DNA from: a virus
Taxonomy: Duplodnaviria; Caudoviricetes
Length of the DNA stretch: 64,000 bases
Direction: 5' to 3' (one strand)
Virus record (IMG/VR): IMGVR_UViG_3300028833_000057
Coordinates: 96,001 to 160,000 of that record
Shown here: positions 1,131 to 51,498 of the stretch, one piece after another
Position numbering within the stretch: the stretch's first letter is position 1
Layout of the letters: every line of letters begins with the position of its first letter
The notes under the pieces: generated by a model
The model's input: the letters and a program-made list of their open reading frames with translations, nothing else
The model's database searches: none
Told to the model about the DNA's origin: nothing
Translations under genes and position numbers: made by a program

Positions 1131-1368
1131 ATGGTACGAGGGAACACGGCTCCTAGCCCCTCGTACCTACGCAATTCCACCATCCGACGAACCGATAAAA
1201 GCCTTCCTCGCCGTAACTTCTCTACCTCCCGAAGGTGGTGTGTCTCCTGCGTACTTTGTAGCCCTAGTGCTGACTGACAGCTTCACGACTGAACCGTGTA
1301 GGTACGTCTTTGACGTTTTACTCGTTTGAAGTCGTGGGCGATCGTTACTTCGCCGAATAAGAGGGCAT
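1131..1368 (-). ncRNA. Candidate structured ncRNA 1 (~240 nt, pseudoknotted)
   Basis: GC-rich intergenic island. Helices 1133-1142/1158-1167, 1168-1173/1248-1253, 1177-1181/1234-1238, 1261-1265/1362-1366, 1284-1290/1330-1336, 1337-1341/1350-1354; loop 1144-1151 complementary to 1292-1299. Confidence 0.65.
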
Positions 1369-1374
1369 TTATAA

Positions 1375-2793
1375 TTATCTATTAGCTTTATGAAATTTTC
1401 TTACACATGCTTGAATATCGTTGATTGTAGAATCATCGACATGGCATACACTAGGCTGTTGTAATCTTTTATAATCATATCTATCAAGATTTACAGTAGC
1501 TATCTTTTCTCCTTTATAGAAGATATCAACTTCTGGATCTATATAATCATCGTCAATATAGCAATCATCATTCCAGTCATCATCAGCTTCACATTTATTG
1601 TCTCGCATAATAATGCGAGTATCTCCATTTCCTTCAATGTCTTCATAAATATAGAATCTAACATATTCATCCGATCCATATCGTACATGATCTTTTTTAA
1701 CTAAAATCCCACCTATTCTCTTTGTTGAAATCTTGTGGAAATCATACTTATGTCTTGTTTTGTACGCGGTTACTGAATCTTTATACTCTTGAATAGAATC
1801 TGCTATTTCTTTTATTCTTTCTTTGTATATTTCAATAAGACTTTCGCATGAATATCTTTTAAGATTATCATCAAGATAGGCTTTCATTTTTCTTTCAGTT
1901 TCTTTAATCTGTTTAGCAAATGGTAATATTGTATTATAACATTTCTTATATGCTTTTACAGAATCTTTATATGCCTGAATAGAATCCTGTTTGTACTGAA
2001 TTATTTCTCTATATTTATTTTCTATCCAATCACATCTTGTATATCTATCAAAGGTTAGATAAAGGTATTCCTTAAAATCTTTTTCTTTTTCATTTGTTTT
2101 CTTTGACAATGGACGGACTCTTGTAAAACATTCTTCTAATTCTATTATAGAATCTCTAGTCCACGCCACAGAGTCGTTATATACCTGAATGGAATCTCGA
2201 ATTTCCTTTATTCTAGTTTTATATGCTTCTGCAATACTTTCACAAGAAAATCTTTTATTCTCTTTAAGATAAGTTCTCATATCTTCTTCAGATTCGTTTA
2301 TCTTTTTAGCTAAAGGTAAGATCCAATGATAGCATTCCACAGAGTCGTTATATGCCTGAATGGAATCTCGAATATATGAATCTCGAATCTCTTTTATTCT
2401 AGTTTCATAAGCTAAAATTGAATCTTTATATGCTTTGATGGAGTCTTCAACTAGAATTGTATGAATAGAATCTGCTATTTCTTTTATTCTTTCTTTATCA
2501 GAGCATTTAATATACGCGTACTCATCATTTATTTCGACGAAAATAGTTCCATCTGGAAAACATTCACCAAGATGTTTAGTAGTACAACATTCATGTTCTT
2601 TTCCAAAAGAATAATAGTCTTTTGAATAATACTCAATATCATTTGTAGAACATCCTGTCCATTCGTGAAGAGTTTCAGACCATTCACAAGTAGAATTAGA
2701 TGAAGCTTCAAAATCTTCAGGATGACGGTCTAATAATAAGGCCGGAACACACCCTATTTGCAAGATACTTAAAAGAAATACAAGTTTCCTCAT
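1375..2793 (-). CDS. Putative lipoprotein/exported protein with internal repeats and many DSI/DSV motifs
   Basis: N-terminus MRKLVFLLSILQIG-C is lipobox-like; three Cys-flanked repeats; TATATTAC at 2835-2842. Confidence 0.75.
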   Translation of the reverse strand: MRKLVFLLSILQIGCVPALLLDRHPEDFEASSNSTCEWSETLHEWTGCSTNDIEYYSKDYYSFGKEHECCTTKHLGECFPDGTIFVEINDEYAYIKCSDKERIKEIADSIHTILVEDSIKAYKDSILAYETRIKEIRDSYIRDSIQAYNDSVECYHWILPLAKKINESEEDMRTYLKENKRFSCESIAEAYKTRIKEIRDSIQVYNDSVAWTRDSIIELEECFTRVRPLSKKTNEKEKDFKEYLYLTFDRYTRCDWIENKYREIIQYKQDSIQAYKDSVKAYKKCYNTILPFAKQIKETERKMKAYLDDNLKRYSCESLIEIYKERIKEIADSIQEYKDSVTAYKTRHKYDFHKISTKRIGGILVKKDHVRYGSDEYVRFYIYEDIEGNGDTRIIMRDNKCEADDDWNDDCYIDDDYIDPEVDIFYKGEKIATVNLDRYDYKRLQQPSVCHVDDSTINDIQACVRKFHKANR

Positions 2794-2834
2794 TATAAGT
2801 TTCTTCCTTTATTTATGGTTGAATTATATGCTTT

Positions 2835-2842
2835 GTAATATA
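2835..2842 (-). promoter_or_regulatory. Early-type promoter motif TATATTA(C/A/T), representative of ~25 copies
   Basis: Exact TATATTAC here (phiKZ early consensus); also at 59-66, 7125, 8790, 14302, 26277, 34958, 38226, 42011, 51500 (minus) and 45992, 48887 (plus). Confidence 0.75.
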
Positions 2843-2891
2843 CAAATCAAAGAATAAAAGACTTATCTGAAATTAGGTATTAAATTTAAGA

Positions 2892-3212
2892 TTAATGAAT
2901 ACTTTGTAAATTAAAACATCCCGGATATTGCTTATCAAGAAATTTCCTTAGTCCTTTAAAATTTCTTATTCCAAAAGTCATAGCATCTTTTTCTAAATTA
3001 AAATGCCCAGCAAGATAAGACACCGCTAAAGTATGTTTTGCCTCATCAATAGATGAATGAGTCTCTGCTCTTAAGGCATTTATATGATAATCCAAGAAAG
3101 CTTCATATTGCTCTTTCTCTCTTTTAAATTCAAGGCAAATTTTTATAAATTCTATAATTAATGTAAATGTAGTTATAATTAATGTAAATACAGCAATCAT
3201 ATTAATCTCCAT
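2892..3212 (-). CDS. Hypothetical membrane protein
   Basis: 106 aa with an N-terminal hydrophobic helix. Confidence 0.65.
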   Translation of the reverse strand: MEINMIAVFTLIITTFTLIIEFIKICLEFKREKEQYEAFLDYHINALRAETHSSIDEAKHTLAVSYLAGHFNLEKDAMTFGIRNFKGLRKFLDKQYPGCFNLQSIH

Positions 3213-3221
3213 TTGGTTTAA

Positions 3222-3353
3222 CTAATCACACTCCACAATACTAGCAACTTGCCCGAAATATTCCGATAAGTATTTATCATATACCTGCTGAACCAAAGAT
3301 TCCTTATCGGAATATTCTGGATCAATATTTCTCATTTCTGATTTAAATGACAT
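3222..3353 (-). CDS. Small hypothetical protein (43 aa, not in ORF track)
   Basis: MSFKSEMRNIDPEY...VECD*, AGAGGT SD, TATATTA upstream. Confidence 0.6.
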   Translation of the reverse strand: MSFKSEMRNIDPEYSDKESLVQQVYDKYLSEYFGQVASIVECD

Positions 3354-3420
3354 AATAACCTCTTATATTTGAGTTCATTTTATAATATATTATGCAAATT
3401 TAAAAAAAATAAAAGGCATC

Positions 3421-3555
3421 CTAAGATACCTTATACTTATTATAATATTCAGCTTCCCTAGCTATGTCATCATCCAACTCAGTCATAGCATCTCGAATAT
3501 TTTTTCTGATATCTATTTTTTTAGAATGCTTAGTGGGTTTATTATTCTTTGGCAT
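3421..3555 (-). CDS. Small hypothetical protein (44 aa, not in ORF track)
   Basis: MPKNNKPTKHSKK...KYKVS*, AAGGAGGT SD, TATATTAA upstream. Confidence 0.6.
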   Translation of the reverse strand: MPKNNKPTKHSKKIDIRKNIRDAMTELDDDIAREAEYYNKYKVS

Positions 3556-3649
3556 GGATACCTCCTTTTTAAGATTTCATAGCTTAATATAAATGAGTAG
3601 ATATAATCTTTACGGAAAAATAAAAGGCATCATAAAGATGCCTTATTTA

Positions 3650-3931
3650 TTATACCATGTATGATTCATAATCTGCACGACCTTCGGATCGAATTCTAGC
3701 TTCAGTGCTAGATGCCGATGCAGATGCACTTAATCCACGACTTTGTTTCTTTTTCTTCTGTTTATTAGTCTTTTTTCTTTTTATTATTGCTTTAGCCAAA
3801 ACTTTCTTTCCAAAATCTATTAACTCTTGGTCAACACCCATGTCCGGGGTTATGACTTTCTTTGTTGATTTAGAATTTATTTTATTATCTTTCTTAGACT
3901 TTGCAGTAGTTGTCATTATTCCTCCCGACAT
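3650..3931 (-). CDS. Small Lys-rich hypothetical protein
   Basis: ORF in a tightly packed minus-strand operon; probable start at MTTT after GGAGGA. Confidence 0.65.
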   Translation of the reverse strand: MSGGIMTTTAKSKKDNKINSKSTKKVITPDMGVDQELIDFGKKVLAKAIIKRKKTNKQKKKKQSRGLSASASASSTEARIRSEGRADYESYMV

Positions 3932-4227
3932 TCTAGAGATACTGGATATGGGAAATTTTCCAATGCACCACCACCAGAATGTGCTCCCGGATGAGGTACA
4001 TGATAATTTTCATTGATGATCTTGCACTTGGTCTTCTTATTAGGAACCTGCATTTCAAGGCATGTAGCTGCTAAAGAACCGCCGCCAGCCTTATATCCAG
4101 CTTCCTTTTGTATCTGTTGCTTGGCAGATTCGCATTGTGCTAGAGTTCTAAATTGTAGGTCTGTATTTATGCCACCATGATAGCTATTAATTACCAATAC
4201 AAAGATTATTTTAAACATTATCTTCAT
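3916..4227 (-). CDS. Small exported hypothetical protein
   Basis: Hydrophobic N-terminus, F-x-T-x-x-x-C-E-x-A motif, paired Cys. Confidence 0.65.
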   Translation of the reverse strand: MKIMFKIIFVLVINSYHGGINTDLQFRTLAQCESAKQQIQKEAGYKAGGGSLAATCLEMQVPNKKTKCKIINENYHVPHPGAHSGGGALENFPYPVSLECREE

Positions 4228-4621
4228 CCTTTACTTTAAGATTAGGTAATCCGAATTCATAACCTATAACAAAATAGTTAAAATCTATATCTTCATGAAG
4301 TTCACGTAATTTTTTCACAAGTTCTGAAGAATAATAATTTTTAACTGTATCATCTAAGAATATTTCTCTTTTAACAATGTAACCATGCATTCCCTCCATA
4401 ACTTCTCGTAAAAGTTTAACGGGATTACTATAAAAGGTAGTATACATCCATGGTAAATACCGCCAATCTTTATGAGCAGCAGATTCTACTAGAGTAAAGC
4501 AACATGAGCCTTTGGTTATAATATCTTCTATAAGCCAAGGCTCATATTTCTCTAAGAATGCCTCCATCTGGTCTAAGCTTTTATGCTTTATAACCACTCG
4601 AAATTCATTAGCATTTATCAT
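4211..4621 (-). CDS. Hypothetical protein
   Basis: 136-aa ORF overlapping its neighbours in the operon. Confidence 0.7.
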   Translation of the reverse strand: MINANEFRVVIKHKSLDQMEAFLEKYEPWLIEDIITKGSCCFTLVESAAHKDWRYLPWMYTTFYSNPVKLLREVMEGMHGYIVKREIFLDDTVKNYYSSELVKKLRELHEDIDFNYFVIGYEFGLPNLKVKDEDNV

Positions 4622-4785
4622 ACTTCATTGCCTTTTCTTGCACTTGGACATGTCGTCTTAACTGGACATTTTGAGCATAAACCATTATTATAGTAATAAT
4701 AGCACATGACATTTTCCTTAACAAATCCTGGTGCAGTTTTTAGCATTTCAATGAAATCACGAACTTGATCTTCGGTAAATTTCAT
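4618..4785 (-). CDS. Small Cys-rich protein (55 aa, not in ORF track)
   Basis: MKFTEDQV...CSKCPVKTTC...EV*, ATGA overlap with the next gene. Confidence 0.6.
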   Translation of the reverse strand: MKFTEDQVRDFIEMLKTAPGFVKENVMCYYYYNNGLCSKCPVKTTCPSARKGNEV

Positions 4786-4797
4786 ACAACTACCACC

Positions 4798-5097
4798 TTA
4801 GTTAGCAGTTATTTTAAATAATCCTGAAGAATAATCATCATACTTATCATCACCAGATGATACTATCTTAGTCCTAAGTTCTTCCATGCACTTGATAAAT
4901 TCAGGTTCATATTCTTTATCAAAAGATACAATAACCGCAGTATAGCCTAGTTCACTATTAACAAAATCCTTCAGAAAGTTGACAGGAATTTTGTGCTGAA
5001 TAAAGATATCATCTGCCAAGTTATTCTTATTGTCTAAATAAGTATATTGAACTGTATCGCCTAATATTTCTTCATTTTTCATTTTTATGTAATTCAT
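4798..5097 (-). CDS. Hypothetical protein
   Basis: 99-aa ORF, AAGGA SD. Confidence 0.7.
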   Translation of the reverse strand: MNYIKMKNEEILGDTVQYTYLDNKNNLADDIFIQHKIPVNFLKDFVNSELGYTAVIVSFDKEYEPEFIKCMEELRTKIVSSGDDKYDDYSSGLFKITAN

Positions 5098-5107
5098 AAT
5101 TTATTCC

Positions 5108-5623
5108 TTAAAATTTAGTTGACTTACCATCAAACGTAAGCCATTGATCATCACCTTCATCTCGTTGCTCATAATCAATTTGATATATCTTACGACTATC
5201 AAAATCTACGATATATATCATTGTTGAAGAGTCACCTTCATCATCCATTAAGCCTTCATAGAATACAAGAATATTGAAAGCATCAAGATATTGCTTCTTA
5301 AATTTCTTATGGAACTTACTAATTTTATCGTAATCTACACGATCTTGTAAGAAATCGTCTTCATCATCTTCTGGATAGAAGATATCATTATCTGGATTCT
5401 TTAGGAAAGTCTTTCCACCAAGTAAAGTAATTAGTCTCTTAAAGACTTTATTATCGCCTTCAGATATCGTTAGAAGTTCATCTTTTTCTTCATCAAAAGT
5501 AAAGATTTGTTCACCATATACAGTAGTCTTATTTAGCAGAACTGTTCTTGCATCTTCTGGATTGTTTGTATCCTTAATCCATTCAGCTATAAAATTTACG
5601 TGCTTTTTGTATTTCGATTTCAT
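5108..5623 (-). CDS. Acidic hypothetical protein
   Basis: 171-aa ORF, SD and TATATTAA upstream. Confidence 0.75.
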   Translation of the reverse strand: MKSKYKKHVNFIAEWIKDTNNPEDARTVLLNKTTVYGEQIFTFDEEKDELLTISEGDNKVFKRLITLLGGKTFLKNPDNDIFYPEDDEDDFLQDRVDYDKISKFHKKFKKQYLDAFNILVFYEGLMDDEGDSSTMIYIVDFDSRKIYQIDYEQRDEGDDQWLTFDGKSTKF

Positions 5624-5717
5624 ATTATTTTCCCTTGTTAAAATATTTTAAATAATACCCAAGTATTAATATATAGAAAAAATAAAAAGGTATCATGGAG
5701 ATACCTATTTTATTTTC

Positions 5718-5924
5718 CTAATTTTCTTCAGCAACTTCAGCTAGAGCTTGTCTAGTGCAAATATTTATAAAACGATCTTCACTTCGCTTAGCTCTCTTGC
5801 GAACTTTCTTACATGCCTTGCGGACATATTTAGAAACTCCCTTAGATTCAAATGCTTCATAATGCCCTCGGGCTGCTGTCTTAAAAATATCAGGTGCCAG
5901 ACTGTGGCTGTTTGCTTTTGCCAT
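5718..5924 (-). CDS. Small basic hypothetical protein
   Basis: 68 aa, AAAGGA SD, terminator downstream. Confidence 0.65.
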   Translation of the reverse strand: MAKANSHSLAPDIFKTAARGHYEAFESKGVSKYVRKACKKVRKRAKRSEDRFINICTRQALAEVAEEN

Positions 5925-5937
5925 ATTTATATTTCCT

Positions 5938-6330
5938 TTAATTCCAAAGGTTAAAAAACCATTTATGAAACAAGCTCATAGCCTTGTCAACAATTTTCCA
6001 ATTTTCTTCAACTACAGCGCTATCCCAGTAAAAATGTTCTGGATAGATCTCAAATCCTTTAATCATTGCATCTAAGATTTCTTGCCATTCTGCAGAAGTA
6101 ATACTGCCGGGATGATCTCCCACTTGTTCAGCATGTTCTTTGAAAGCTTTTAAGCGAGGTGCTATAAATTTTGCAATAGTACAATCAAGACTCCAGAGTT
6201 CTGTATCATCAAAGCCTCTTGTAAGACGTTGAAGTTTCCATTCATCTGCTCTGTCATCAGTATCTTTACCTAAGGTAAAATTGACATTCTTAATTCCAAT
6301 CGGATCTATATTTTTTATATCTACAGCCAT
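5938..6330 (-). CDS. Phage hypothetical protein (D-x-x-L-W-S-L-D type)
   Basis: GFDDTELWSLDCTIAKFIAPRLKAF...FFNLW pattern resembles a recurrent uncharacterised phage family. Confidence 0.7.
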   Translation of the reverse strand: MAVDIKNIDPIGIKNVNFTLGKDTDDRADEWKLQRLTRGFDDTELWSLDCTIAKFIAPRLKAFKEHAEQVGDHPGSITSAEWQEILDAMIKGFEIYPEHFYWDSAVVEENWKIVDKAMSLFHKWFFNLWN

Positions 6331-6453
6331 TATATTATCTCTCCTATAGTTAGAGTTATCTATATTTTAATATAAATATTGATAGATAAAATTTTCGAAA
6401 AAAAAATGAGTATAAAAGTTTAATCTTTTATACCCACTGTCTAAGTTGCATTT

Positions 6454-6798
6454 TTATAGTTTTAGTTTATCTATATTTTTCAATAATATTTCACAAGCAA
6501 TAGCTCGATTGAAATAAGCTTGCTCTTGTTGGCAATCTTCAAAATGCGATTTAAGAGCTTCTATAACCTTATCCTTAATATTTCTTTGCATAAGCTTTTC
6601 TGACATCAAAGTTTTTAAGGCTAACCTCATCTTATGCATAGGAATATTCGCTATGCAATCTTTCAATTTACCATTATCTACAATTGTTAAAAGAATAGTT
6701 CTAAAAGGCATTGTCTTATAATCCTTGAAAATAGTATCTCTATTTTCTTTAATAATAGGTGCTATGCCTTCACGAAATACATCAATCGGTTTTATCAT
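6454..6798 (-). CDS. Hypothetical early protein
   Basis: AAAGGAG SD, TATATTAA upstream, terminator downstream. Confidence 0.75.
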   Translation of the reverse strand: MIKPIDVFREGIAPIIKENRDTIFKDYKTMPFRTILLTIVDNGKLKDCIANIPMHKMRLALKTLMSEKLMQRNIKDKVIEALKSHFEDCQQEQAYFNRAIACEILLKNIDKLKL

Positions 6799-6865
6799 AT
6801 ATCTCCTTTGTTAATGCACACTAATTAATATAATAACGGATTATAGACATTTTAAGAAAAAAAAA

Positions 6866-7112
6866 ATGGCGCAGGTTATGTGCTTTTCCTACGCCTTGCC
6901 AGTTCCCTCCTCCACTGTTTGCAACCAGCTTTAGAACCTACTTAGTATATGTGCACTTCTACCAAGTGGATGGCTCCATGTTATAGTAATAACTGTCTCC
7001 ACTATTGTGGTTAATTGACTCTCTCCCTTGGGGGGTTCTTCCGAGGTCAAAAGCAGTAGGATTTACCCCCAAGGATAAGGGCTACTCCAAATGTACTATC
7101 TTTCCATCATAT
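6866..7112 (-). ncRNA. Candidate structured ncRNA 2 (~245 nt, pseudoknotted)
   Basis: Promoter motif 7125-7132; helices 6868-6875/6888-6895 (G-U only on the minus strand), 7026-7034/7066-7074, 6969-6973/7104-7108; loop 6881-6887 complementary to 7049-7055; ends in a U-tract. Confidence 0.65.
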
Positions 7113-7137
7113 TACCTTCTCTTTTTAATATATGAAA

Positions 7138-7488
7138 TTATTTCTTTTCTCTACGATTCTTATATTCTTCAATAATCTTTAGTAATTTTTCTTCAGTACT
7201 GAACGGAACTTTTGTAGGATTCAAGCTTCTACAACTATGTTCATCAATCATATCTGGTTCCCATTTATCAAGAATAAAACCGGGGCGACCTGTTTTATAC
7301 CTGATATTTGCTGGAAGATTAAAATCTCCGTCACCTAAATACCACCAACGTTCTTTTAGAAAGAATGATCCTTTATTCCATTCTGCAGTTTCTGCATTTA
7401 TAGTCTTAAGACGAATGTCCTTTCTCTTAAAGCCATTCTGTTTTAAAATTCTGTCTGCGAGCTGCCATGTAAGTCTTTTATTTGCCAT
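7138..7488 (-). CDS. Hypothetical protein
   Basis: 116-aa ORF in operon. Confidence 0.7.
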   Translation of the reverse strand: MANKRLTWQLADRILKQNGFKRKDIRLKTINAETAEWNKGSFFLKERWWYLGDGDFNLPANIRYKTGRPGFILDKWEPDMIDEHSCRSLNPTKVPFSTEEKLLKIIEEYKNRREKK

Positions 7489-7489
7489 T

Positions 7490-7981
7490 TTAGTATCCTA
7501 CCTTTTTTCGTACAAAGGATATAACATCACCAACAGTCCTATCAGAATTCTGACTTGTTATTTCTGCTATATTCACTTCTTCGTCTGTAATTTCAATTTG
7601 GAATTCATCTTCTAATTTCATTACAAGTTCGATTGCATCTAGAGAATCCATTCCTAAACAACTGCCAAGAGTTGTAAGTTCATTTATTTCTCCACCATAA
7701 TCTACAATCTCATGTATAATTCTATACACTTTAGAAGGAATAGTATCATCTTCCTTTTTAGGTGCATCAATTTCTGCATCAAACGTTGTCTCAGGATCAT
7801 CATGAACCCCAAGAGGTTCAATATTCTCACAATCCTTTAATTCAACATTTGGCAAAATATCTATCTGAAAAGTATCTTTAGTCTTCATATGTGTCGCTAC
7901 AATAGAAGATACTTGCTTAAGAAGTACCAAGAGATCTTTCTTATCTATGTCTTCAGTAATCTTTAACAATACCTGATACAT
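7490..7981 (-). CDS. acpP: Acyl carrier protein domain with N-terminal extension
   Basis: LGMDSLDAIELVMKLEDEFQIEITDEE...TVGDVISFV is the canonical ACP phosphopantetheine-attachment region. Confidence 0.85.
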   Translation of the reverse strand: MYQVLLKITEDIDKKDLLVLLKQVSSIVATHMKTKDTFQIDILPNVELKDCENIEPLGVHDDPETTFDAEIDAPKKEDDTIPSKVYRIIHEIVDYGGEINELTTLGSCLGMDSLDAIELVMKLEDEFQIEITDEEVNIAEITSQNSDRTVGDVISFVRKKVGY

Positions 7982-7991
7982 ATTTCCTCAC

Positions 7992-8363
7992 TTAGATTTC
8001 TATGAAGAATTTAATGTCTGGAGGCATTTTCTTCTTTTCAATCTTTGCAGCTTTCACTTTGACATTATTATTTTCCATAGCTGTACAGAGTGTACGGGCA
8101 TATGAATCCACATAATCGCTAGATAAAGACTTTATCAGTTCATCAGCGGAGTCTAAACCAAATCCACCACTTTCACTGGTAATGGTAATTTCAAATCCTG
8201 TAATTTTAGCATTCCTGCAACTAAAAGTTGCTGCTGTCTGTGCTCTTGTAGTAATAGAATTCTTAATACCAATTACAGCACCAATAACATATGGTGCTCT
8301 TGAATTTGCATCGCTTACTGCATGCTTTTTAACTTCTTCAGACATTTCTTCTCTGGTCTTCAT
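7992..8363 (-). CDS. Hypothetical protein
   Basis: 123-aa ORF, GAGGA SD. Confidence 0.7.
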   Translation of the reverse strand: MKTREEMSEEVKKHAVSDANSRAPYVIGAVIGIKNSITTRAQTAATFSCRNAKITGFEITITSESGGFGLDSADELIKSLSSDYVDSYARTLCTAMENNNVKVKAAKIEKKKMPPDIKFFIEI

Positions 8364-8381
8364 AGTTTCCTCTATAGAAGG

Positions 8382-8762
8382 TTAGATCCAATGATTCTTT
8401 TCAGCATCTTCTTTATCTTTAAATTCTCTTACATTAATTGATATGCACTCAGTAAGTGCTAGCATAGTTTCTGCAATAACAGAAAATCCAAAACTTTCAC
8501 AAAGTGCTAATAGTAATTCATTTGCAGTCTTAAAATAAATATCTTCTTCATCTTTTTCTTTAGTTTCACCTTCATCTTTATAATCGATATGCAGATGATA
8601 TGTATCTGGTTCATTAGTGTTTTCATTAAATTCTACAGAATAGTCATCTATAGATAAACCAGCTAGCGAATCACTCACGATATTATCAATAATCTCTTCA
8701 GCAAATTCTTTAAGATCACGATTAAATTCAGGCTTCGTATGTAGCTCTAATTGTGTATACAT
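8382..8762 (-). CDS. Acidic hypothetical protein
   Basis: 126 aa, AAGGA SD, TATATTAA at 8790-8797. Confidence 0.75.
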   Translation of the reverse strand: MYTQLELHTKPEFNRDLKEFAEEIIDNIVSDSLAGLSIDDYSVEFNENTNEPDTYHLHIDYKDEGETKEKDEEDIYFKTANELLLALCESFGFSVIAETMLALTECISINVREFKDKEDAEKNHWI

Positions 8763-8845
8763 ATCTATTCCTTTTGTTAAAGCTATAATTTAATATAATA
8801 AAGTATCTAAAAAAAAAATATCTCTCTAGATGAGAGATATTCATT

Positions 8846-10225
8846 TTAGTGTAGGTGAGTAAAGATCTTATTCCTACCTATAAATCCTGATGCATCATGC
8901 AGCGTATTAATATCTTTATTTTCCGCATATTGTGCATTATCCATCATTATGTGATTAAATATTTCAGTGCTACTAGCATTATTCTTGTATAAGTTATCAA
9001 TCTCGGTAGCCGTTTTATAGGCGCTCATAAATGCCGTAGCTAAAGCCTTAAGAACTGTAAGACGATTATCCTGTTCAGATTCATCTTTAGTCTTTCTTGT
9101 TTTAAAATGCTTTCTCTTGAAAGTTCTAGCCATTATATTTACATCGATGTTCTCTCTTAATGGCGTATGCACATTACATATTGTATTTTCAAGCATAACA
9201 CGCATATAACTTTCTAGAATTTGGTTCATATAGTCTTTCTTACAGATATCTATCCAATCAGTACTATTACCTATGATAGATTGTCTAAATTGTAAACCTT
9301 GGACAATACCCATACCATATCCGTAAGGATTTTCATAATATACTTCTAGAGGATGTCTAAGTGGATAATATCTACTTAGATAAGATTCTGGATCAAGCGT
9401 CTGTGAATTTATATTGTGTGCTTTAGATTCAATCTCGGCATTTATATTCATAAGAACAATATGCTCTCGATGATATAGTATCCATGCAAGTATATTACCA
9501 ATGGTCATATCTGATGCAACATCTACTGGAACTTGGGAACTATTCCAATAGGTATCATTTATATCTAATAAACCATAGCTACCATAATATGATCTATCTC
9601 TAGCATATCTTCTACTAAGGCAAATATACCCTGGACTTACTGCCGATGCACTTTTGGTTATAAGTTTACTACTATCACAAGAAACTCTATACAGATTCAA
9701 TATCTCAAAGATATCCTTATTAAAGAATTCATTATCACGAGAATATGGTGGCATAATAATCATCTTATTATCTTCTGTAATTTCCATGCCACGTCTTTGT
9801 ATAGAGGAATCAAAATATGATGATAGGTCTGTAGGTAACAACCTTTCTCTATCATTGTCATAACTAGACGGTATCCTATATACATCTTGAAACTCTATTA
9901 TAAGATTTTGTCTACCTTCCAACCATGCCTGAATATCAGGATTGCTAAGAATCTTATCAAATATTTCTACAGAAGTCGCTCTACGTTCATTAGCAATACT
10001 TTCAATATTATTATCACAAGTTGCCGTTATAAATCTAGACATAGCATTTCCAATGTCTATATTTTCTTGTACGTTCTGCAGTATCCTACTATTTTTTCTT
10101 TCATACACAAGGTTTATTCCTTCCATTAAAATACCCTTGACTATGAAATCAAATATATGCGAAGTAACATCTCCATAACGTGAATCACGATATGGATAAA
10201 GTTTTATATCTACTTTTATAGACAA
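8846..10225 (-). CDS. Hypothetical protein
   Basis: 459-aa ORF, GGAGG SD, TTG start. Confidence 0.8.
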   Translation of the reverse strand: MSIKVDIKLYPYRDSRYGDVTSHIFDFIVKGILMEGINLVYERKNSRILQNVQENIDIGNAMSRFITATCDNNIESIANERRATSVEIFDKILSNPDIQAWLEGRQNLIIEFQDVYRIPSSYDNDRERLLPTDLSSYFDSSIQRRGMEITEDNKMIIMPPYSRDNEFFNKDIFEILNLYRVSCDSSKLITKSASAVSPGYICLSRRYARDRSYYGSYGLLDINDTYWNSSQVPVDVASDMTIGNILAWILYHREHIVLMNINAEIESKAHNINSQTLDPESYLSRYYPLRHPLEVYYENPYGYGMGIVQGLQFRQSIIGNSTDWIDICKKDYMNQILESYMRVMLENTICNVHTPLRENIDVNIMARTFKRKHFKTRKTKDESEQDNRLTVLKALATAFMSAYKTATEIDNLYKNNASSTEIFNHIMMDNAQYAENKDINTLHDASGFIGRNKIFTHLH

Positions 10226-10570
10226 TTAGTCCTCCAATAATATCATATTGGTCAAAACAAATCCTTTATAATCCTTAAATATGTCATAAATAATTAAAAT
10301 ACCCTTTTCAGAAAAGGGGTTTACATCTAAGGTTCGTATAGCACTTGCTTTAGCTATATCTTTACAATCTGTTTCATAATATTCGTATACGATGTAAACT
10401 TTATAAAGATCTCTTTTAAGAGATACAAATTCTTTAGCTGGTGAAAGCATGACTTCTAAAAAGCCTTCTTCATCAGTAACTTCTGGTTGCAAAGATTCTT
10501 TCCTAAGGCGATTTATTAAGCGCATAAATGCTTTAGGATGTGATAAAAATATTGATGTTATATTGTTCAT
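10226..10570 (-). CDS. Hypothetical protein
   Basis: 114-aa ORF abutting the next gene. Confidence 0.65.
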   Translation of the reverse strand: MNNITSIFLSHPKAFMRLINRLRKESLQPEVTDEEGFLEVMLSPAKEFVSLKRDLYKVYIVYEYYETDCKDIAKASAIRTLDVNPFSEKGILIIYDIFKDYKGFVLTNMILLED

Positions 10571-10667
10571 ACTAAAATAAAATGAGCTAAGTAGATTTTA
10601 CTCTACTTAGCTCATTATAATTTATTGACCATAATAATGACGATCATCGTCATTATCATAACCATCG

Positions 10668-11780
10668 TCAGTCATAAGGGTACGTATCATCAAAAAGGGA
10701 GCTGCTACGAGAATAGTCAATCCCGTCTTGATCTTCTGGATAATCTGGGAAGGCACTACCTTTCTTTTTTGACTTGTCCTTATTTTTCTTTCCTGACTTC
10801 TTTCCTCTGGAACCAGATGGGGTCTTGGTAGTTCCCTTGCTGACACCGTCATAGGTAGCCGGTCGAAACGGACTTCCAGCTGTGCTACTAGTAGACGATA
10901 CTATCGTCGTACTTGCAGTACTGCTGGCCACCTCATCTGCCGCAGAGTTGGACTGGAATTCAAGAAGCATACGGATACACTGACGGATCTCAATATCGGA
11001 GAGGTTTTCATAGTTACCAGTCTTGGCAGCAATGTCAAACATAGCCATCAAGTAGTAGGTAGCTACCGAGATTTCTTCTTCATCGAGTTCAGCATCAGGA
11101 ATCAGATCCACACTGACCATGAAAGACTTATTGTCTTCAGCCTGGACAACAATCATAGTACCATCGAGGTTGTAATCGATGTCTACAATAATTGTCTTAT
11201 TGGCATTAATATCCCTGAGTCGTTCCACCATACCATCGACGGTAGTAATTTCTTCAGGAGGATATACAGTAAGTGTTTCAAGCTGTGCATCCAATTCATT
11301 GTAACGTTCAACATAGTCAAACGGGAGAACGCCATCAATATTGGCTTCAATTTCTTTTTCATCTTCAAGCTTGCTGAGATACTTGTATCCTGTGTCTTCA
11401 GCTTCACGTATGACGTAATGCTTACTTTCCTTTTCACAGACAGCATCAAACACCCACAGCAAAGCCGTGTGTGTTTCAGGAGACATTTCATCATCAATAC
11501 TCATGAAGAGATCAAAGATATCCTGGGCAGAGTTTTCCGGAGCATTAAGCTCGATCGGAAATTCATCATCATCCTCGGTAGGATTATCCCAGTCAATCCT
11601 GAAGTACTTCGTCGTATTCGCATGCTTGACTTTTACAGAAAGTTCAAGGTTCTGTGCATAATATGCAGACTTAGCATAGAGCTTGGTCGTAATATCTACG
11701 CCACCCTCATCTGCCTTGTGTTCTTCAATATAATCGAGACACTCCTTCATCCCGATCAAGCCTTTATCGTTCAGTGCCAT
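10668..11780 (-). CDS. Acidic hypothetical protein with Ser/Thr linker and Lys-rich/acidic tail
   Basis: 370 aa, higher GC and more C-ending codons than neighbours, follows primase. Confidence 0.8.
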   Translation of the reverse strand: MALNDKGLIGMKECLDYIEEHKADEGGVDITTKLYAKSAYYAQNLELSVKVKHANTTKYFRIDWDNPTEDDDEFPIELNAPENSAQDIFDLFMSIDDEMSPETHTALLWVFDAVCEKESKHYVIREAEDTGYKYLSKLEDEKEIEANIDGVLPFDYVERYNELDAQLETLTVYPPEEITTVDGMVERLRDINANKTIIVDIDYNLDGTMIVVQAEDNKSFMVSVDLIPDAELDEEEISVATYYLMAMFDIAAKTGNYENLSDIEIRQCIRMLLEFQSNSAADEVASSTASTTIVSSTSSTAGSPFRPATYDGVSKGTTKTPSGSRGKKSGKKNKDKSKKKGSAFPDYPEDQDGIDYSRSSSLFDDTYPYD

Positions 11781-11789
11781 TTTTGTCCT

Positions 11790-12845
11790 TTACTTTGTTA
11801 GGGTTATTGCATTTTTAACTTCTATAAAATTCTTACTAACTCCAAAGTCATGACCTTTAGAGTTTCGTAAATAATATACTTTGAATTTTAGATCTATAGG
11901 TAATCTATATTTCCACAATTGAGCTTTATATTCTTCAGGTGCGACGTCACCATCTGAAAATATAAGGATTTCTTGATCCAAGAAACCTAAGCTAACGAAG
12001 AATTTCAATACACTAATTATACCATGACCAAGCATAGCAGCAAATGTATGATCTCTTAACTGTGGGAATGCATAGTATATCCCTATTACATCGAAAATTC
12101 CTTCTGCAATTACTAATTTCAATTTAGACTGTAATATATCAAGCTTCTGATTAAATGTATAAATTCTGAAAGGACTCTTATGAAACATCAGGTCGTAATA
12201 TCGATGTTCCTTATCGTCTGACACAATATTTCTATTGATAAGACCTTCATAAGAATAATTCATGAATCCAATATAATCACTATTTAATATATTCATATAA
12301 TTCGTGTCTACTGGCAAATTCATTATTGAATTATATCTTACAAATTCTTTTAGATCAAAAACTACTTTAAACTTTTCTATTTCTTCTTTTGTAACCTTAG
12401 TATCAAACCTTTTACATAGATATTGATACTTTTGAATATTATTAATGACAGAAATTCTATTAAATGGCGGGATCAGTAGTTGATTACTACGTACTTTCTT
12501 ATCTAAGAAACTAGAAATCTGTCTTCTGCTAGATACATTCTTATGCTTAACATCTTCTTTTACAGCATTCTTATTTTGGCTAATAATTTCCTGAAGCTCT
12601 GGTGTTATGGCGACACCTAGAAGCTTCAGGAAACCTTCGTTTACAGCACCACTAAACTTACATCTGTGACATAAGTAATAGAATGGTGGTACACGAGAGA
12701 TATAAAGGTGTGCATGATTTGGATTATCACTATCCAAACATGATGGACACCTTATAACTCTGTCTTTATTACCATTTGCTAGTGTGGTAAAGCCATCGTA
12801 TGCTGAAAGAATTGCGTCTTCTAAGACTTTACCTGCATCTCTCAT
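11790..12845 (-). CDS. DNA primase (Zn-binding + TOPRIM)
   Basis: CPSC...H...CHRC zinc-binding domain; IAEGIFD and SDGD TOPRIM motifs. Confidence 0.85.
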   Translation of the reverse strand: MRDAGKVLEDAILSAYDGFTTLANGNKDRVIRCPSCLDSDNPNHAHLYISRVPPFYYLCHRCKFSGAVNEGFLKLLGVAITPELQEIISQNKNAVKEDVKHKNVSSRRQISSFLDKKVRSNQLLIPPFNRISVINNIQKYQYLCKRFDTKVTKEEIEKFKVVFDLKEFVRYNSIMNLPVDTNYMNILNSDYIGFMNYSYEGLINRNIVSDDKEHRYYDLMFHKSPFRIYTFNQKLDILQSKLKLVIAEGIFDVIGIYYAFPQLRDHTFAAMLGHGIISVLKFFVSLGFLDQEILIFSDGDVAPEEYKAQLWKYRLPIDLKFKVYYLRNSKGHDFGVSKNFIEVKNAITLTK

Positions 12846-14272: not shown

Positions 14273-14315
14273 TATGCCTCCTTATTTGTTGGAGTCTTTA
14301 TTTAATATAAAAATA

Positions 14316-15122: not shown

Positions 15123-15176
15123 AATTTACCTTAAGGGAATATATACCTATATCTAAGTAGATATAGGTATAATATA

Positions 15177-16838: not shown

Positions 16839-16859
16839 TATTTTTCCTTGTTGGTGAGA

Positions 16860-17170
16860 TTATTCTTCATGAATTAGGGTTTCTGGTGGAGCTTCAGAAT
16901 TTATATCTCCGGGCATTGTCACATTTGGATCTCTTGATGCTACCGATTTAGCTGCCTTAGCTCTTTCTTCATTCATCTTATGCTTTGCTTCGAGTAAACC
17001 GAATAAGCGATTGACATCCATTGACAATATTTCTGTAAGGGTAATCTTACCTTCAAACGCATCAAGAATATTGAGGATGGCACGATTCTCTTCCTCAAAT
17101 ATTCTTTTGCGTTTTTCAGATAACCTTATTCGTTGTCCTTCTGAAACACCCGGCGTACTCTGAAAAAAAG
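16860..17170 (-). CDS. Predicted -1 frameshift extension of the upstream tail/baseplate assembly gene
   Basis: -1 frame open ~100 codons from the CUU UUU UUC site (17162-17170) to TAA at 16860, with no start codon near its 5' end. Confidence 0.7.
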
Positions 17171-18688: not shown

Positions 18689-18736
18689 ATTTTTATCCTT
18701 CGTGGAGGTTCATTTTAAAGTTATCATGCTTAAACT

Positions 18737-19138: not shown

Positions 19139-19230
19139 ATTATACCTATAAATTTAAATTAAATTTATATATTTTTCATACTTATGTTAAATTTTATGAA
19201 TAATTATAATATTATATTTTATACATAATA

Positions 19231-38122: not shown

Positions 38123-38196
38123 TAGTCCATGCGGGATTCGAACCCACGACCTACTGCTTAGAAGGCAGTTGCTCTATCCAGCTGAGCTAATAGACT
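38123..38196 (-). tRNA. tRNA-Arg (anticodon UCU)
   Basis: Cloverleaf: acceptor AGTCTAT/ATGGACT, D-arm TAGCTCAGCTGGATAGAGC, anticodon arm ACTGC-CTTCTAA-GCAGT, GGTTCGAATCC; CCA not encoded. Confidence 0.95.
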
Positions 38197-49012: not shown

Positions 49013-49026
49013 AAAAAGAAGAGCAT

Positions 49027-49480: not shown

Positions 49481-49780
49481 TTAATTAGATTCATCAAGAA
49501 ATTTAGCTCTAATTATAAAGAATGTATCTCTACATGTCAAAGGATCAAATAAATAAAGATCTTGAAAAAATCTTTTTTGAATATTATTAAGGCTATCTAA
49601 ATATGTAATTTTTATATCTTTAATTGTATTGAATGTAATCGGAGCAATTCGCATATGGAGACATATACCGAATTGCTTTGATGTAATGCCTTCGGTTAGT
49701 TTTCCATATGCTAAATTGATAAAACCTGAAACTGTACCAGTATATTCTTCTCCAGTTACAGTGTGTATTAAAGCTTTCAT
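49481..49780 (-). CDS. Hypothetical protein
   Basis: 99 aa, ATGA overlap with an upstream small ORF. Confidence 0.6.
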   Translation of the reverse strand: MKALIHTVTGEEYTGTVSGFINLAYGKLTEGITSKQFGICLHMRIAPITFNTIKDIKITYLDSLNNIQKRFFQDLYLFDPLTCRDTFFIIRAKFLDESN

Positions 49781-49929
49781 ACAGTACCCACATAGTTGCT
49801 TTTAATATCTTGTACTATAGACTTTGCAATCATTACTATCTTATGTATATTTTGCTTAGTAATCTCTTGATTATAAGCTTCTAATTCTTCGGGACTTAGA
49901 AAATTCTCTGAATCAGTATTCAAAGCCAT
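49777..49929 (-). CDS. Small hypothetical protein (50 aa, not in ORF track)
   Basis: MALNTDSENF...GTV*, GAGGT SD. Confidence 0.55.
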   Translation of the reverse strand: MALNTDSENFLSPEELEAYNQEITKQNIHKIVMIAKSIVQDIKSNYVGTV

Positions 49930-49938
49930 ATAAACCTC

Positions 49939-50277
49939 TTATCTAAAAATATCCCTATTAAACATTTGGTCAGTGATATCTTTTATATCTTCAGATTTTA
50001 TTGGATAACGCACACAATTTTTAAATATTAGTCTGAATGTCTTAAATCGTGTATAAATGATCCTATACCTGTCGTTATCATATATAACATCAGACGAATA
50101 ATACTTATTATAATCTGGATCATTGCGCCTAAGGTCTTCGTCACGTAATCCATACATGTCTTGATAGTACCCATTGGGAACCCTCATTATATCTACATTT
50201 GTTTTGCGATGTTTGAGTATTAAACCCAATATAAAGTAATATACCTTAAAATATAGGTATGCCATTCTTTCCTCCAA
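49939..50277 (-). CDS. Hypothetical protein
   Basis: Probable start MAYL after GGAGGA; early motif upstream. Confidence 0.65.
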   Translation of the reverse strand: MEERMAYLYFKVYYFILGLILKHRKTNVDIMRVPNGYYQDMYGLRDEDLRRNDPDYNKYYSSDVIYDNDRYRIIYTRFKTFRLIFKNCVRYPIKSEDIKDITDQMFNRDIFR

Positions 50278-50336
50278 AGTTAGGCAAATTTTAATATATG
50301 TAAAAAATTTATAAAAAAAAGAAGAGGCCGTAGCCT

Positions 50337-50900
50337 CTAATTAATGTCTAATATTTCTGACTCCTTAGGATATACCTTTTTGTAAAGATGCCTATAAATA
50401 GATTTAAATAATTTATCCTTTATAAAAATATCTTTGTATTTGTCTAAGAAGTATAATAGATTATATCGGTCAAATTTATCAGATGGTATCTCACTTATAT
50501 CCATTAAACGTGTACTAGGAATTATTTCATTGTTAAGCGATTTTTGGCGCATGTTCTCCATGACCTGTAAATTACCGCGTATATGACTAATAGTAGGATC
50601 AGTTATACATTCCTGATATACTTCTATAACATCACCTTGTTTGATTGGATTTCCCTTCTTATATTTTTTTCCGTTTAGAAGGGCTTCAGCCCGTATAATT
50701 CCTTTATCTCGCATAATGCTAAGAACTTGAGATAAAAAATCTTTAGATGCATCTAATTCTATACCATTTGGGCTAGATCTATGAAAGATATGCATCGTTA
50801 TATTTTCCATCAGTTTATAAGCTCTTACTCCGCTTGTATTAGGCATTGGATGTATTACGTCCATATTGCCAAAATAAAGTATTGTTTTAGTATCATTCAT
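50337..50900 (-). CDS. Hypothetical protein
   Basis: 187 aa, AAGGAG SD, early motif ~50932. Confidence 0.7.
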   Translation of the reverse strand: MNDTKTILYFGNMDVIHPMPNTSGVRAYKLMENITMHIFHRSSPNGIELDASKDFLSQVLSIMRDKGIIRAEALLNGKKYKKGNPIKQGDVIEVYQECITDPTISHIRGNLQVMENMRQKSLNNEIIPSTRLMDISEIPSDKFDRYNLLYFLDKYKDIFIKDKLFKSIYRHLYKKVYPKESEILDIN

Positions 50901-51002
50901 AATGACTCCTTGATATTAAACGATACATATCTTAATATAAGGAAGCGTAATGAAAAATTTCGATTATTTTGTATATGAAATCTATTTTAATCTTTATAGA
51001 AA

Positions 51003-51498
51003 AAAGAAGTGGCTAGCTTCTTCCCACATCCTTCTAGGGATGTGTAAGTCCGTTTCTAAGTCTATCTAGTCCTCGCCTATGATGTTGCCACCCGGCTCTT
51101 AGATCCCATCTTTCCATTCCGCAACCTTGGTAGGTACATCGAAACGTGAGTCGCGCTTTCCACGACGGGTTACCCAGTTGCCTACTGGAAAATGAATTTT
51201 AACCTTTGCTATGGGCTACGTATTTTCATGCGTATCGCTATTGTTTCAATGGTCATGATAGACCCTGATGCTATTGCATAGTAGCGCATGCTGTCAGGCT
51301 TACTTTTGTTTTTATGAGTCCTGCTTCATTTTACAGTCTCAACCTAGCTATTCATACATATTTGACGCTATGTATGCGTTTAACGTCAGCTAGGATGCTG
51401 TGCCACCTTAACGGTTTTCAGTGACACTTGACGATATCATAACACGTTTGACCATACCGATCCTCTTAGGAGTTAGTATCTTATACTATGATACACGT
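51003..51498 (-). ncRNA. Candidate large structured ncRNA 3 (~490 nt)
   Basis: ORF-free and GC-enriched; promoter motif 51500-51507; more than 10 helices including a pseudoknot; terminal hairpin + U-tract. Confidence 0.7.

Follow-up and report, generated by a model that had tools for sequence, protein, structure and literature searches.

Probable noncoding RNA cassettes at terminator–promoter junctions of an AR9/PBS1-like jumbo phage

In T4-type phages, promoter-early stem-loop (PeSL) cassettes mediate modular shuffling (PMC2839356, PMC4122927), and the protein "moron" cassettes of these phages are shuffled in the same manner as we propose below for RNA genes. The phage considered here is an AR9/PBS1-like jumbo phage of 268 kb from sheep rumen, of which we analyzed a window of 64,000 nucleotides. 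It resembles the PeSL systems in that composites of a terminator hairpin and an early promoter recur at cassette borders, with contents and order between the borders that vary among phages related to it. It differs in that part of what is shuffled consists of structured noncoding RNA modules instead of small protein genes, and in that the cassettes reside in AR9-like jumbo phages, which have RNA polymerases of their own. We consider it probable that four ORF-free gaps of the window, RNA1 to RNA4, are independent noncoding RNA cassettes shuffled at terminator–promoter junctions, and not one coordinated system. Independent support exists for two of them, for RNA1 from homologs and covariation and for RNA2 from RNA depth.

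Several described RNAs invite comparison. GOLLD and ROOL are phage-borne, ORF-free RNAs of ~400–800 nt, similar in size to RNA3, RNA4 and a 601-nt unit of a related phage (G001), but these three match no Rfam 15 model at E values up to 10. T4 species 1 and 2 (RNA C and RNA D) are stable, abundant and dispensable RNAs of ~120–140 nt, modules of a variable region that lie in a tRNA cluster and arise by processing of tRNA precursors. The modules described here are likewise phage-encoded, modular and of a similar size class, yet the single tRNA gene here lies ~31 kb or more from RNA1 and RNA2 and ~12 kb from RNA3 and RNA4. Bacterial Y RNAs, which occur with Ro60, are phage-carried, structured, modular RNAs of ~100 nt with protein partners and are comparable in size and modularity to module A of RNA1; in contrast to them, the RNAs here match no Rfam Y RNA model, and no Ro60 gene lies beside RNA1.

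Comparison with Rfam 15, which includes GOLLD, ROOL, OLE, raiA, HEARO, 6S, RNase P, tmRNA, riboswitches, ribozymes and introns, was among the checks proposed in a first-pass annotation of this DNA, and none of the gaps matches. At the gathering score the whole window yields tRNA-Arg alone, and permissive scans of the gaps, the homologous loci and the 601-nt unit return chance-level matches (E >0.09). ARAGORN finds just tRNA-Arg(TCT) at 38123–38196, bearing out the earlier remark that the gaps lack tRNA and tmRNA hallmarks. The analysis supports noncoding RNA genes that are not in Rfam 15.

ORF-free gaps and their borders

Phage genomes are tightly packed, and ORFs cover ~93% of this one. The four large ORF-free gaps singled out earlier are real. 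The minus strand of all four contains no ORF of at least 60 aa; on either strand, the longest ORF is 41 aa in the RNA4 gap and 37 aa in the RNA3 gap, barring a plus-strand ORF at a gene edge that merely clips the latter. RNA1 is overlapped by a plus-strand GTG ORF of 73 aa, which looks like a by-product of the high GC content of RNA1. The sole further large gap, 3213–3704, proved to be coding: it holds small proteins of 44 and 43 aa in two cassettes, each with its own promoter, RBS and terminator, and the true ORF-free gaps are therefore RNA1 to RNA4. Three of them are GC-enriched, as had been observed (RNA1 52.9%, RNA2 44.9% and RNA4 43.3%, against 33.5% for the genome), whereas RNA3, at 32.6%, is at the genome average and thus not enriched. 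The description of the gaps as helix-rich fared less well. Folding z-scores of the minus strand relative to dinucleotide shuffles are −2.6 for RNA1, −1.6 for RNA2, −1.0 for RNA3 and −3.3 for RNA4, no better than those of coding windows of the same genome (26 windows of 250 nt; mean −1.45, sd 1.5, minimum −5.6).

The minus strand contains 82 copies of the motif TATATTAA and the plus strand 25, mostly ~25–40 nt 5′ of start codons, and the motif agrees with the AR9 early promoter consensus, AAATATATATTAT-(6N)-G (PMC5312081). TATATTA(A) can be regarded as a credible early promoter. Matches to the motif on the minus strand precede RNA2 (7126–7132), RNA3 (26278–26284) and RNA4 (51501–51507); in this phage RNA1 lacks both a promoter motif and a terminator. 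The proposal that three gaps run from TATATTA to a hairpin with a U-tract thus stands in full for RNA2 and RNA3, which have a clear hairpin and U-tract at the 3′ end, and in part for RNA4, where the motif is present and the 3′ end is a weak A/U-rich stem with a U-tract in which a terminator scan found nothing. Ordinary cassettes of the same region have an RBS and ATG ~35 nt past the motif; behind the motifs of RNA2, RNA3 and RNA4 there is no RBS-led ordinary ORF.

Modules A and B of RNA1

RNA1 had been read as a single RNA with conserved long-range pairing. It consists instead of two separable modules, which a related phage places on separate transcripts. Module A (~108 nt; 1259–1366, minus strand), delimited by homologs and covariation, is a four-way-junction RNA. 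In the covariance-supported model it comprises a closing stem P1, a hairpin P2, a long arm P3, which bears the inner hairpin P3a and an internal loop that is large and invariant, and a hairpin P4. Homologs are present in G001/L046, L163 and L190, and a diverged copy, A′, in L128 scores 75 bits with the covariance model (R1). In an alignment that was fitted to the model, 99.2% of cells pair over 26 base pairs; none of 500 shuffles does as well, and 21–43% of cells pair when the partners are slid. Compensatory changes on both sides occur in seven of the 26 pairs and affect all five helices; they all derive from the single diverged sequence A′ and so amount to one lineage comparison. The G-U pairs of the module fit only the minus strand, which is the transcribed one. 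Covariation among homologs, which had been suggested as a check, is thus found for module A: the compensatory substitutions expected of a structured RNA family are present, by comparison with one diverged homolog, and they indicate that its fold is under selection. Module A is 96–98% identical to its relatives, compared with 78–81% for the adjacent gene of the same shared blocks, in which B reaches 87–98%. Its GGUUCA segment recalls a T-loop, and a T-loop-like hairpin on it was considered and rejected, as A′ does not preserve the hairpin and covariation favors the long-range P3 pairing instead.

Module B (~132 nt; 1127–1258, minus strand), delimited by homologs and an RNAalifold consensus, is predicted to be closed by a stem of 7 bp, with two hairpins inside it, and to have a terminal hairpin of 10–12 bp. 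It is found at 87–98% identity in G001/L046/L178, G003/L064/L165, L163, L190 and L128. Its sequence is nearly invariant, and most columns never vary. Of the 37 consensus pairs, one shows a compensatory change (C-G to U-A, in the terminal hairpin) and five contain a broken or gapped cell, figures to be read with few columns varying. The conservation of B could derive in part from recent transfer, and the alignments indicate that both A and B are constrained at the nucleotide level. No conserved family, and hence no covariation, was found for RNA3 or RNA4.

The gene adjacent to these modules (gene113; 764–1105, minus strand) encodes a 113-aa protein for which Pfam, PHROG and Atlas gave no lead. 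It often, not always, adjoins A and B: it lies beside one or both in this phage, L163, G001, G003 and L064, and does not accompany A-B in L190 or B-A′ in L128. Five other rumen phage sequences carry A and B alone, in either order or with a different domain fused, and the related sequences together show six arrangements of A, B, domain C and gene113. This phage has A-B-gene113, L163 has A-B-gene113-A, L190 has A-B-terminator, L128 has B-A′-terminator, and G003 and L064 have B-gene113 without A. In G001, L046 and L178, A is followed by a terminator, a promoter and gene113, then by another gene, domain C fused to B, and a terminator. Three whole genomes contain no further copies of either module. 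A riboswitch or other cis-acting leader was considered for A and B and set aside, as they precede different genes, precede each other or stand alone behind terminators.

The borders of these units repeat a stem-loop with an early promoter, and units are inserted, deleted and re-ordered between them, as in the PeSL systems. In G001 the junction of terminator and TATATTA that follows A is near-identical to the one that follows B, and the small-gene cassettes at 3213–3704 are bounded by the same layout of terminator and early promoter. This phage shares a 1.2-kb block with G003 at 86–99% identity, where otherwise the two genomes align at 66–73%; the remainder of the relatives' genomes aligns at just 65–73%, confined to the best-conserved genes. 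We propose a model in which the cassettes sit in variable, presumably early-transcribed parts of the AR9/PBS1-like genome, each a self-contained unit that would be gained, lost and re-ordered by recombination at the repeated junctions of terminator and early promoter. RNA1 would be a composite of cassettes A and B, and RNA3 and RNA4 strain-specific candidate units of the same layout. The most plausible way for A, B and RNA2 to work would be in trans, as stable RNAs to which a protein or some other macromolecule binds. They would serve as decoys or scaffolds and not as catalysts or base-pairing RNAs, and A and B would make contact through their invariant internal loops.

RNA2, RNA3 and RNA4

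RNA2 (6857–7118, minus strand) is a stand-alone transcript of ~250 nt, delimited by its motif, its terminator and metatranscriptome contigs. The predicted start is at ~7118, and the terminator hairpin (6868–6895) is followed by a U-tract (6857–6866). The abundant 5′ end is at 7106, and the contigs pass into adapter sequence at 7106 and 6974. Word depth in the bin 6671–7337 is 453 and 338 in two metatranscriptome runs, against ~3–20 in flanking bins, such that RNA2 is 20–100× deeper than its neighbors, in assembled contigs from two runs of one sheep-rumen sample, which do not reveal strand, precise ends or true levels. Over the same bin the depth of two DNA runs stays flat (9 and 34). The metatranscriptome check that had been called for therefore shows RNA2 to be very abundant in rumen RNA contigs, and we conclude that it is a stable, very abundant RNA. 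An identical copy (L308) is present in a second sample. In the same data, depth over module A is 33–53, compared with 1–8 over the gene directly upstream.

Like the protein-sponge RNAs CsrB and RsmZ, RNA2 is abundant and rich in GGA (10 motifs, 5.1 expected) and GGAG (6, 1.3 expected). Unlike them, most of its GGA motifs are predicted in stems, and GGAGGAGGG is shown in just one loop. A CsrB/Rsm sponge was rejected as an identity for RNA2, the G residues of seven of the ten GGA motifs being paired with high probability; the CsrB/Rsm family models do not match it.

RNA3 (25865–26270, minus strand) is an ORF-free candidate unit of ~400 nt that runs from promoter to terminator, with a terminator hairpin at 25873–25895 followed by a U-tract and an AT-rich middle. 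The structural gene downstream of it has a late-type motif of its own, AACTTTGAATTG. RNA4 (51000–51494, minus strand) is an ORF-free candidate unit of ~495 nt, delimited by its motif and by the weak terminal stem and U-tract, and is divergent from the gene for the virion RNA polymerase β′ subunit.

Kinship and alternative readings

The first-pass annotation had proposed one coordinated early noncoding RNA system in which RNA1 and RNA2 would form one paralogous pair and RNA3 and RNA4 another, a proposal we find scarcely credible. The same promoter type at three of the four RNAs is consistent with it, as is a slight collinear excess of words common to RNA3 and RNA4: 80 6-mers against 57.5 in shuffles (P ~0.007), and a chain of 13 against 8.8. 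However, the excess is not significant for 7-mers, the local alignment score of this pair equals that of shuffles, and RNA1 and RNA2 have fewer common words than shuffles, their common ending CCAU being trivial. Blastn within the genome matches each RNA to itself alone, plus AT-rich chance matches, and the covariance models of A and B (R1, R2) find no match in RNA2, RNA3 or RNA4. Relatives that carry A and B are without the other three RNAs, and the four thus do not travel together. A different reading takes the units as cis-acting leaders or long UTRs, with B, alone or with A, regulating gene113 and RNA4 serving as the 5′ leader of a 187-aa gene (50337–50900). The end of B lies 27 nt from the start of gene113, with no U-tract or terminator between them, in this phage, L163, G003 and L064; RNA depth is alike over B (9–21) and gene113 (9–39); the terminal stem of RNA4 is one that the terminator scan missed; and in AR9, 5′ UTRs can reach 491 nt (PMC5312081). 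This reading is nonetheless unlikely, as G001, L178, L190 and L128 have a strong terminator and a new promoter after A and B with other genes downstream, RNA2 and RNA3 are strongly terminated and followed by genes with their own promoters, and the 187-aa gene has its own TATATTA (50933–50939), 33 nt past the end of RNA4.

The units might also express tiny peptides. Candidates are a 4-codon ORF (MMER-stop) at the start of RNA2, a 15-codon ORF of RNA4 behind AAGAGGA and a 5-codon ORF of RNA3 behind AAGAGGAA, each with an RBS-like sequence at the correct spacing; the mini-ORF of RNA2 closes with AGA, and a tRNA-Arg(UCU) gene is present in the phage. The bar minigenes of phage lambda are a precedent for such expression. 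Against this, the abundant 5′ end of RNA2 falls inside its mini-ORF, the mini-ORFs make up <10% of each unit, and the compensatory and G-U changes of module A are the signature of an RNA fold, which together leave minigenes highly improbable. More weight, though still little, goes to the possibility that only RNA1 and RNA2 are real RNA genes, RNA3 and RNA4 being non-functional filler, left by recombination or gene decay, that happens to lie between a stray promoter and a terminator. Neither RNA3 nor RNA4 has homologs in the searches made, which covered G001 and G003 for both and phage records for RNA4; RNA3 is at the genome average in GC, with a fold z-score of only −1.0, and the z-score of RNA4 lies within the coding background. 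The RNA4 site, 5′ of the β′ gene, holds a different sequence in a 94% relative and has no gap in relatives at 60–68% β′ identity. On the other side stand the tight packing of the genome, the elevated GC content of RNA4, and its fold, far better on the minus strand than on the plus strand (z of −0.6). Independent RNA cassettes, our preferred reading, also draw on the site of RNA3: at the syntenic position G001 retains its non-homologous, ORF-free unit of 601 nt, which runs from an early promoter to a terminator and suggests that this site is used for RNA genes.

Layout of the four gaps

The source record in IMG/VR is 267,826 bp long and judged complete; the window spans bases 96001-160000 of it, has a GC content of 33.5% and about 93% of it is covered by ORFs. 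Its proteins group the phage with the AR9/PBS1/phiR1-37-like jumbo phages: virion proteins of these phages match a structural protein of the window at 27-30% identity, and a piece of a split RNA polymerase beta' is encoded at 51587-53086 (PHROG 2986, E 4e-91). The public runs that contain the window sequence come from sheep gut or rumen.

The first-pass annotation singled out four minus-strand gaps, RNA1 (1131-1368), RNA2 (6866-7112), RNA3 (25868-26272) and RNA4 (51003-51498), and a sizeable ORF is indeed absent from each. GC enrichment holds for RNA1 (52.9%), RNA2 (44.9%) and RNA4 (43.3%) and does not extend to RNA3, at 32.6% against 33.5% for the window. The motif TATATTAA has 82 copies on the minus strand and 25 on the plus strand, usually 25-40 nt 5' of start codons and often right after a U-rich hairpin. 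It resembles the early promoter of AR9, mapped by experiment as AAATATATATTAT-(6N)-G(+1) (PMC5312081). As claimed, RNA2, RNA3 and RNA4 each begin below TATATTAA; the hairpins with U-tracts said to end them are strong at RNA2 and RNA3, while the terminal stem of RNA4 is weak and was missed by a terminator scan. RNA1 lacks both the motif and a terminator in this phage. A late-type AACTTTGAATTG precedes the structural gene after RNA3.

The only other large gap, 3213-3704, encodes two small proteins of 44 aa (3421-3555) and 43 aa (3222-3353), each within a cassette in which a terminator and TATATTAA are followed, after about 20 nt, by RBS and ATG, and so provides a useful internal control for the ordinary early cassette of this phage. 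Both genes would escape gene calling with a 50-aa cut-off. Outside the window, a crude scan of the rest of the record (G000:C1) found three more ORF-free stretches (1-602, 61847-62177 and 262123-262421), each with a TATATTA motif followed 130-270 nt on by a terminator, and the genome may therefore hold about seven promoter-to-terminator ORF-free units.

Permissive Rfam scans of each gap returned nothing, and tRNA-Arg(UCU) at 38123-38196 was the sole find in the window by Rfam 15 and ARAGORN. The gaps had also been described as helix-rich, a description that does not rise above background. Against dinucleotide shuffles, minus-strand folding z-scores are -2.6 (RNA1), -1.6 (RNA2), -1.0 (RNA3) and -3.3 (RNA4), within the range of 26 random 250-nt sense windows placed in long protein genes of the same window (mean -1.45, sd 1.52, minimum -5.6, with 6 of the 26 at or below -2.79). 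Because coding windows fold comparably, folding energy is no evidence for RNA1-RNA4, and z-scores taken alone are untrustworthy in this genome. The only energy-based pointer left standing, a hint, is the asymmetry between minus and plus strands (-3.3 vs -0.6 for RNA4 and -1.6 vs +0.4 for RNA2).

RNA1 is built of two separable modules

RNA1 consists of modules A (1259-1366) and B (1127-1258), whose separability follows from six arrangements of the locus. Homologs, recovered by pattern scans of IMG/VR and of metagenome and genome collections, are carried by a complete 259-kb phage of 42% GC (G001), by a 235-kb phage of 41% GC (G003, with L064 as a partial relative) and by four metagenome contigs (L128, L163, L178 and L190). 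Our phage has A-B-gene113, the last being the gene of a 113-aa protein (764-1105). L163 has A-B-gene113-A, an arrangement that also explains a joint in RNA-run contigs that 'goes back' from 1369 to 825, and L190 has A-B-terminator-promoter-other gene. The order is B-A'-terminator in L128, where A' is a diverged A. G001, L046 and L178 have A-terminator-promoter-gene113, then another gene, a domain 'C' fused to B, and a terminator-promoter; G003 and L064 have B-gene113 without A. Each module is present once per genome in the whole genomes compared (G003 lacking A). Behind A and behind B in G001 the terminator-promoter junctions are nearly identical, a layout that matches the modular shuffling mediated by promoter-early stem-loops (PeSL) in T4-type phages (PMC2839356, PMC4122927). 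Domain 'C' (L061:13780-13898 in G001) is GC-rich and noncoding, is fused 5' of B, and occupies the slot held by module A in our phage.

Elsewhere, alignment of G001 and G003 with our phage is confined to the best-conserved genes, at 65-73% identity, against which the RNA1 locus, at 78-99%, is an outlier. A 1.2-kb block (60-1255) that takes in module B together with the genes of a 195-aa protein and of the 113-aa protein is 86-99% identical to G003, the genomes otherwise aligning at 66-73% identity; this early-region block appears to have been exchanged recently. Measured in the same shared stretches, identity is 96-98% for A, 87-98% for B and 78-81% for the adjoining 113-aa gene; that the modules are more identical than their neighbouring gene argues for nucleotide-level constraint on A and B in addition to recent transfer.

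Module A is a structured RNA. A covariance model built from four near-identical copies and the structure proposed in this analysis has A' as its sole further hit, at 75 bits (E about 5e-20). In an alignment fitted to the model, the 26 pairs of the five helices are formed in 99.2% of cells; 7 of the 26 pairs, at least one per helix, change on both sides, all seven through the single sequence A', whose hairpin P2 is almost wholly different in sequence. Another five pairs vary via G-U. These values were equalled in none of 500 column shuffles, and sliding the partners lowers pairing to 21-43%. The fold belongs to the transcribed minus strand, since its G-U pairs would be A-C mismatches on the opposite strand. 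The large internal loop between P3 and P3a (UCAAACGA..UAAA and ACCU....GGUUC) is almost invariant, A' included, and is the leading candidate for a functional surface. We dropped the idea of a T-arm-like hairpin within A, as A' does not retain it. Module B is nearly invariant, with one compensatory pair only; its consensus structure combines a closing stem of 7 bp with two inner hairpins and a long terminal hairpin. An earlier proposal had ACACGGUU in A pair over a long range with AGCCGUGU in the terminal hairpin loop of B. We have abandoned it, since L128 does not preserve this pairing and A and B have separate transcripts in G001.

Neither module matches an Rfam family. The module B pattern yielded more than 200 loci in the metagenome and genome collections, only five of them real and all five metagenomic, with no true copy from any bacterial genome; two looser patterns for module A gave no additional copies in IMG/VR. 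The DNA of RNA1 and of RNA4 had no match among 50,697 phage records. The 472-aa protein upstream of RNA1 has a single homolog, without the RNA behind it, and the 113-aa protein gave no lead in Pfam, PHROG or Atlas. An A/T-rich stretch 5' of module A is kept in several genomes (window 1363-1390; L061:12815-12833; L190:700-723) and ends ..AAAT-G or ..AAACA-G directly before the first G of helix P1. With this stretch loosely recalling the late promoter of AR9 type (AACA-(6N)-TA/G), module A may start exactly at P1 from a promoter of that kind.

Abundance of RNA2 and the sites of RNA3 and RNA4

RNA2 is among the most abundant phage transcripts of one rumen metatranscriptome sample, as judged by contig-based depth. 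We used contigs of two RNA runs from one sheep-rumen sample (X3, X4) and of two DNA runs (X1, X5) over window positions 1-20000, and interpreted only those parts that have contig cover; contigs from a single sample speak to presence and relative abundance, with strand, exact level and true ends beyond their reach. In the RNA runs, the bin holding RNA2 (6671-7337) reaches a summed word depth of 453 and 338, its neighbours lying at about 3-20; the DNA runs are flat across it (9 and 34). RNA-run depth is 33-53 over module A, 9-21 over B, 9-39 over gene113 and 1-8 over the 472-aa gene immediately upstream. A contig runs into adapter when very many short inserts end alike. RNA-run contigs enter the Illumina adapter directly at 7106 and 6974, which are therefore an abundant 5' end of RNA2, about 12 nt below the start predicted from AR9 spacing, and an abundant internal end. 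High depth at 3336-4002 in all four runs (55-144) is cross-mapping, since the low-complexity stretch 3746-3782 attracts contigs of many other organisms in all four; this stretch would produce false depth peaks under any read mapping.

RNA2 is 100% identical in a second sample (L308), and so offers no variation. No diverged homolog was found, a pattern of its pseudoknot and helix returned 11 IMG/VR loci that were all chance, and the 116-aa protein upstream is confined to identical strains. RNA2 contains a perfect 9-bp helix (CCUUGGGGG/CCCCCAAGG) whose loop could pair with downstream sequence (UUGAC/GUCAA) in a candidate pseudoknot. GGA and GGAG are enriched; the majority of copies lie in predicted stems, and a role as CsrA sponge was dropped on that ground. 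Near the 3' end, the hairpin loop 6900-6916 shows GGAGGAGGG; this strong Shine-Dalgarno-like run is not followed by a start codon.

RNA3 and RNA4 have the right anatomy for putative RNA genes; no homolog of either was found in the phage records, G001, G003 or any fetched locus. The RNA3 site recurs. G001 has a 601-nt ORF-free unit on the minus strand (L054:12262-12862, about 92.3-92.9 kb of IMGVR_UViG_3300028832_000002), syntenic with RNA3 and flanked by the same two divergent structural genes. This unit has a TATATTA motif, a strong terminator and a fold z of -3.75 (20 shuffles only); it matches no Rfam family and resembles no RNA of the window or other sequence compared. Judging from this synteny, what is conserved is a site that houses a long noncoding unit, and not the sequence in it.

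The region upstream of beta', where RNA4 lies, appears from comparison of relatives to be a replacement hot spot. Relatives with beta' at 60-68% identity are gap-free there, and one at 87% has an 890-nt gap. One at 94% (L045:1-60) has unrelated sequence where the RNA4 promoter and 5' end lie here, as read from 120 nt of flank of which the outer (upstream) 55 nt or so differ. No RNA4 analogue was found upstream of beta' in G001 or G003; an apparent 741-nt gap in G001 is actually a plus-strand protein gene. The exact sequence of the 187-aa protein beside RNA4 is not on record.

Probable independent cassettes and their possible roles

The first-pass annotation read the four RNAs as one coordinated system, possibly two paralogous pairs. 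The best-supported picture is instead one of independent noncoding-RNA cassettes, which would sit in plastic parts of the genome. Paralogy among the four is not seen by blastn, and covariance models of modules A and B (R1 and R2) gave zero matches in RNA2, RNA3 and RNA4. RNA1 and RNA2, said to share a topology, have fewer common 6-mers than shuffles do. RNA3 and RNA4, said to share words in the same order, have 80 common 6-mers against 57.5 in shuffles (P about 0.007) and a collinear chain of 13 against 8.8; their 7-mer excess is not significant and their best local alignment equals the shuffle mean.

To our knowledge, phage-encoded structured RNAs are few and have a known function in almost no case. 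The present analysis adds two new RNA modules, carried by a handful of sequences from rumen jumbo phages; one of the modules has a four-way junction supported by covariation. Stable RNAs without an assigned function are already known from phages, as is the shuffling of cassettes at terminator-promoter junctions. What is new is the RNA families themselves, absent from Rfam 15, and structured RNA modules as shuffled units, which stand alone, combine in either order or are joined to other domains. This suggests that the mechanism shuffling cassettes of small early protein genes moves RNA genes too. It is tempting to speculate, although we think it unlikely, that A, B, C, RNA2, RNA3, RNA4 and the 601-nt RNA of G001 form an undescribed repertoire of mobile RNA 'domains', freely combined by rumen jumbo phages in any order, whether fused or not, in the way that protein domains are shuffled. 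Each module would then act on its own as a decoy that binds a different host factor or defence sensor with high affinity, and counter-defence functions would reach phages in the form of RNA cassettes.

We regard RNA1 (A and B) and RNA2 as very probably genuine, stable RNAs. In our view their most likely mode is binding in trans, in which they would engage a protein or other macromolecule as decoy or scaffold; this is suggested by invariant loops in a covarying or conserved frame, by terminated stand-alone forms, by free combination of modules and by high abundance. If the targets of the modules prove to be host factors or defence proteins, the modules would represent a compact class of phage counter-measures that is easy to test. 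Rival readings would make the units filler, leaders acting in cis, or carriers of mini-peptides. Both RNA1 modules outdo the neighbouring protein gene in conservation and recur in several arrangements, and the genes downstream of RNA2 and RNA4 have promoters of their own (TATATTA at 6826 and 50933). The mini-ORF at the start of RNA2 (7095-7109) has four codons (MMER-stop), and the abundant RNA 5' end at 7106 falls within it. This mini-ORF ends in AGA, the codon read by the window's only tRNA, tRNA-Arg(UCU), which may be coincidence.
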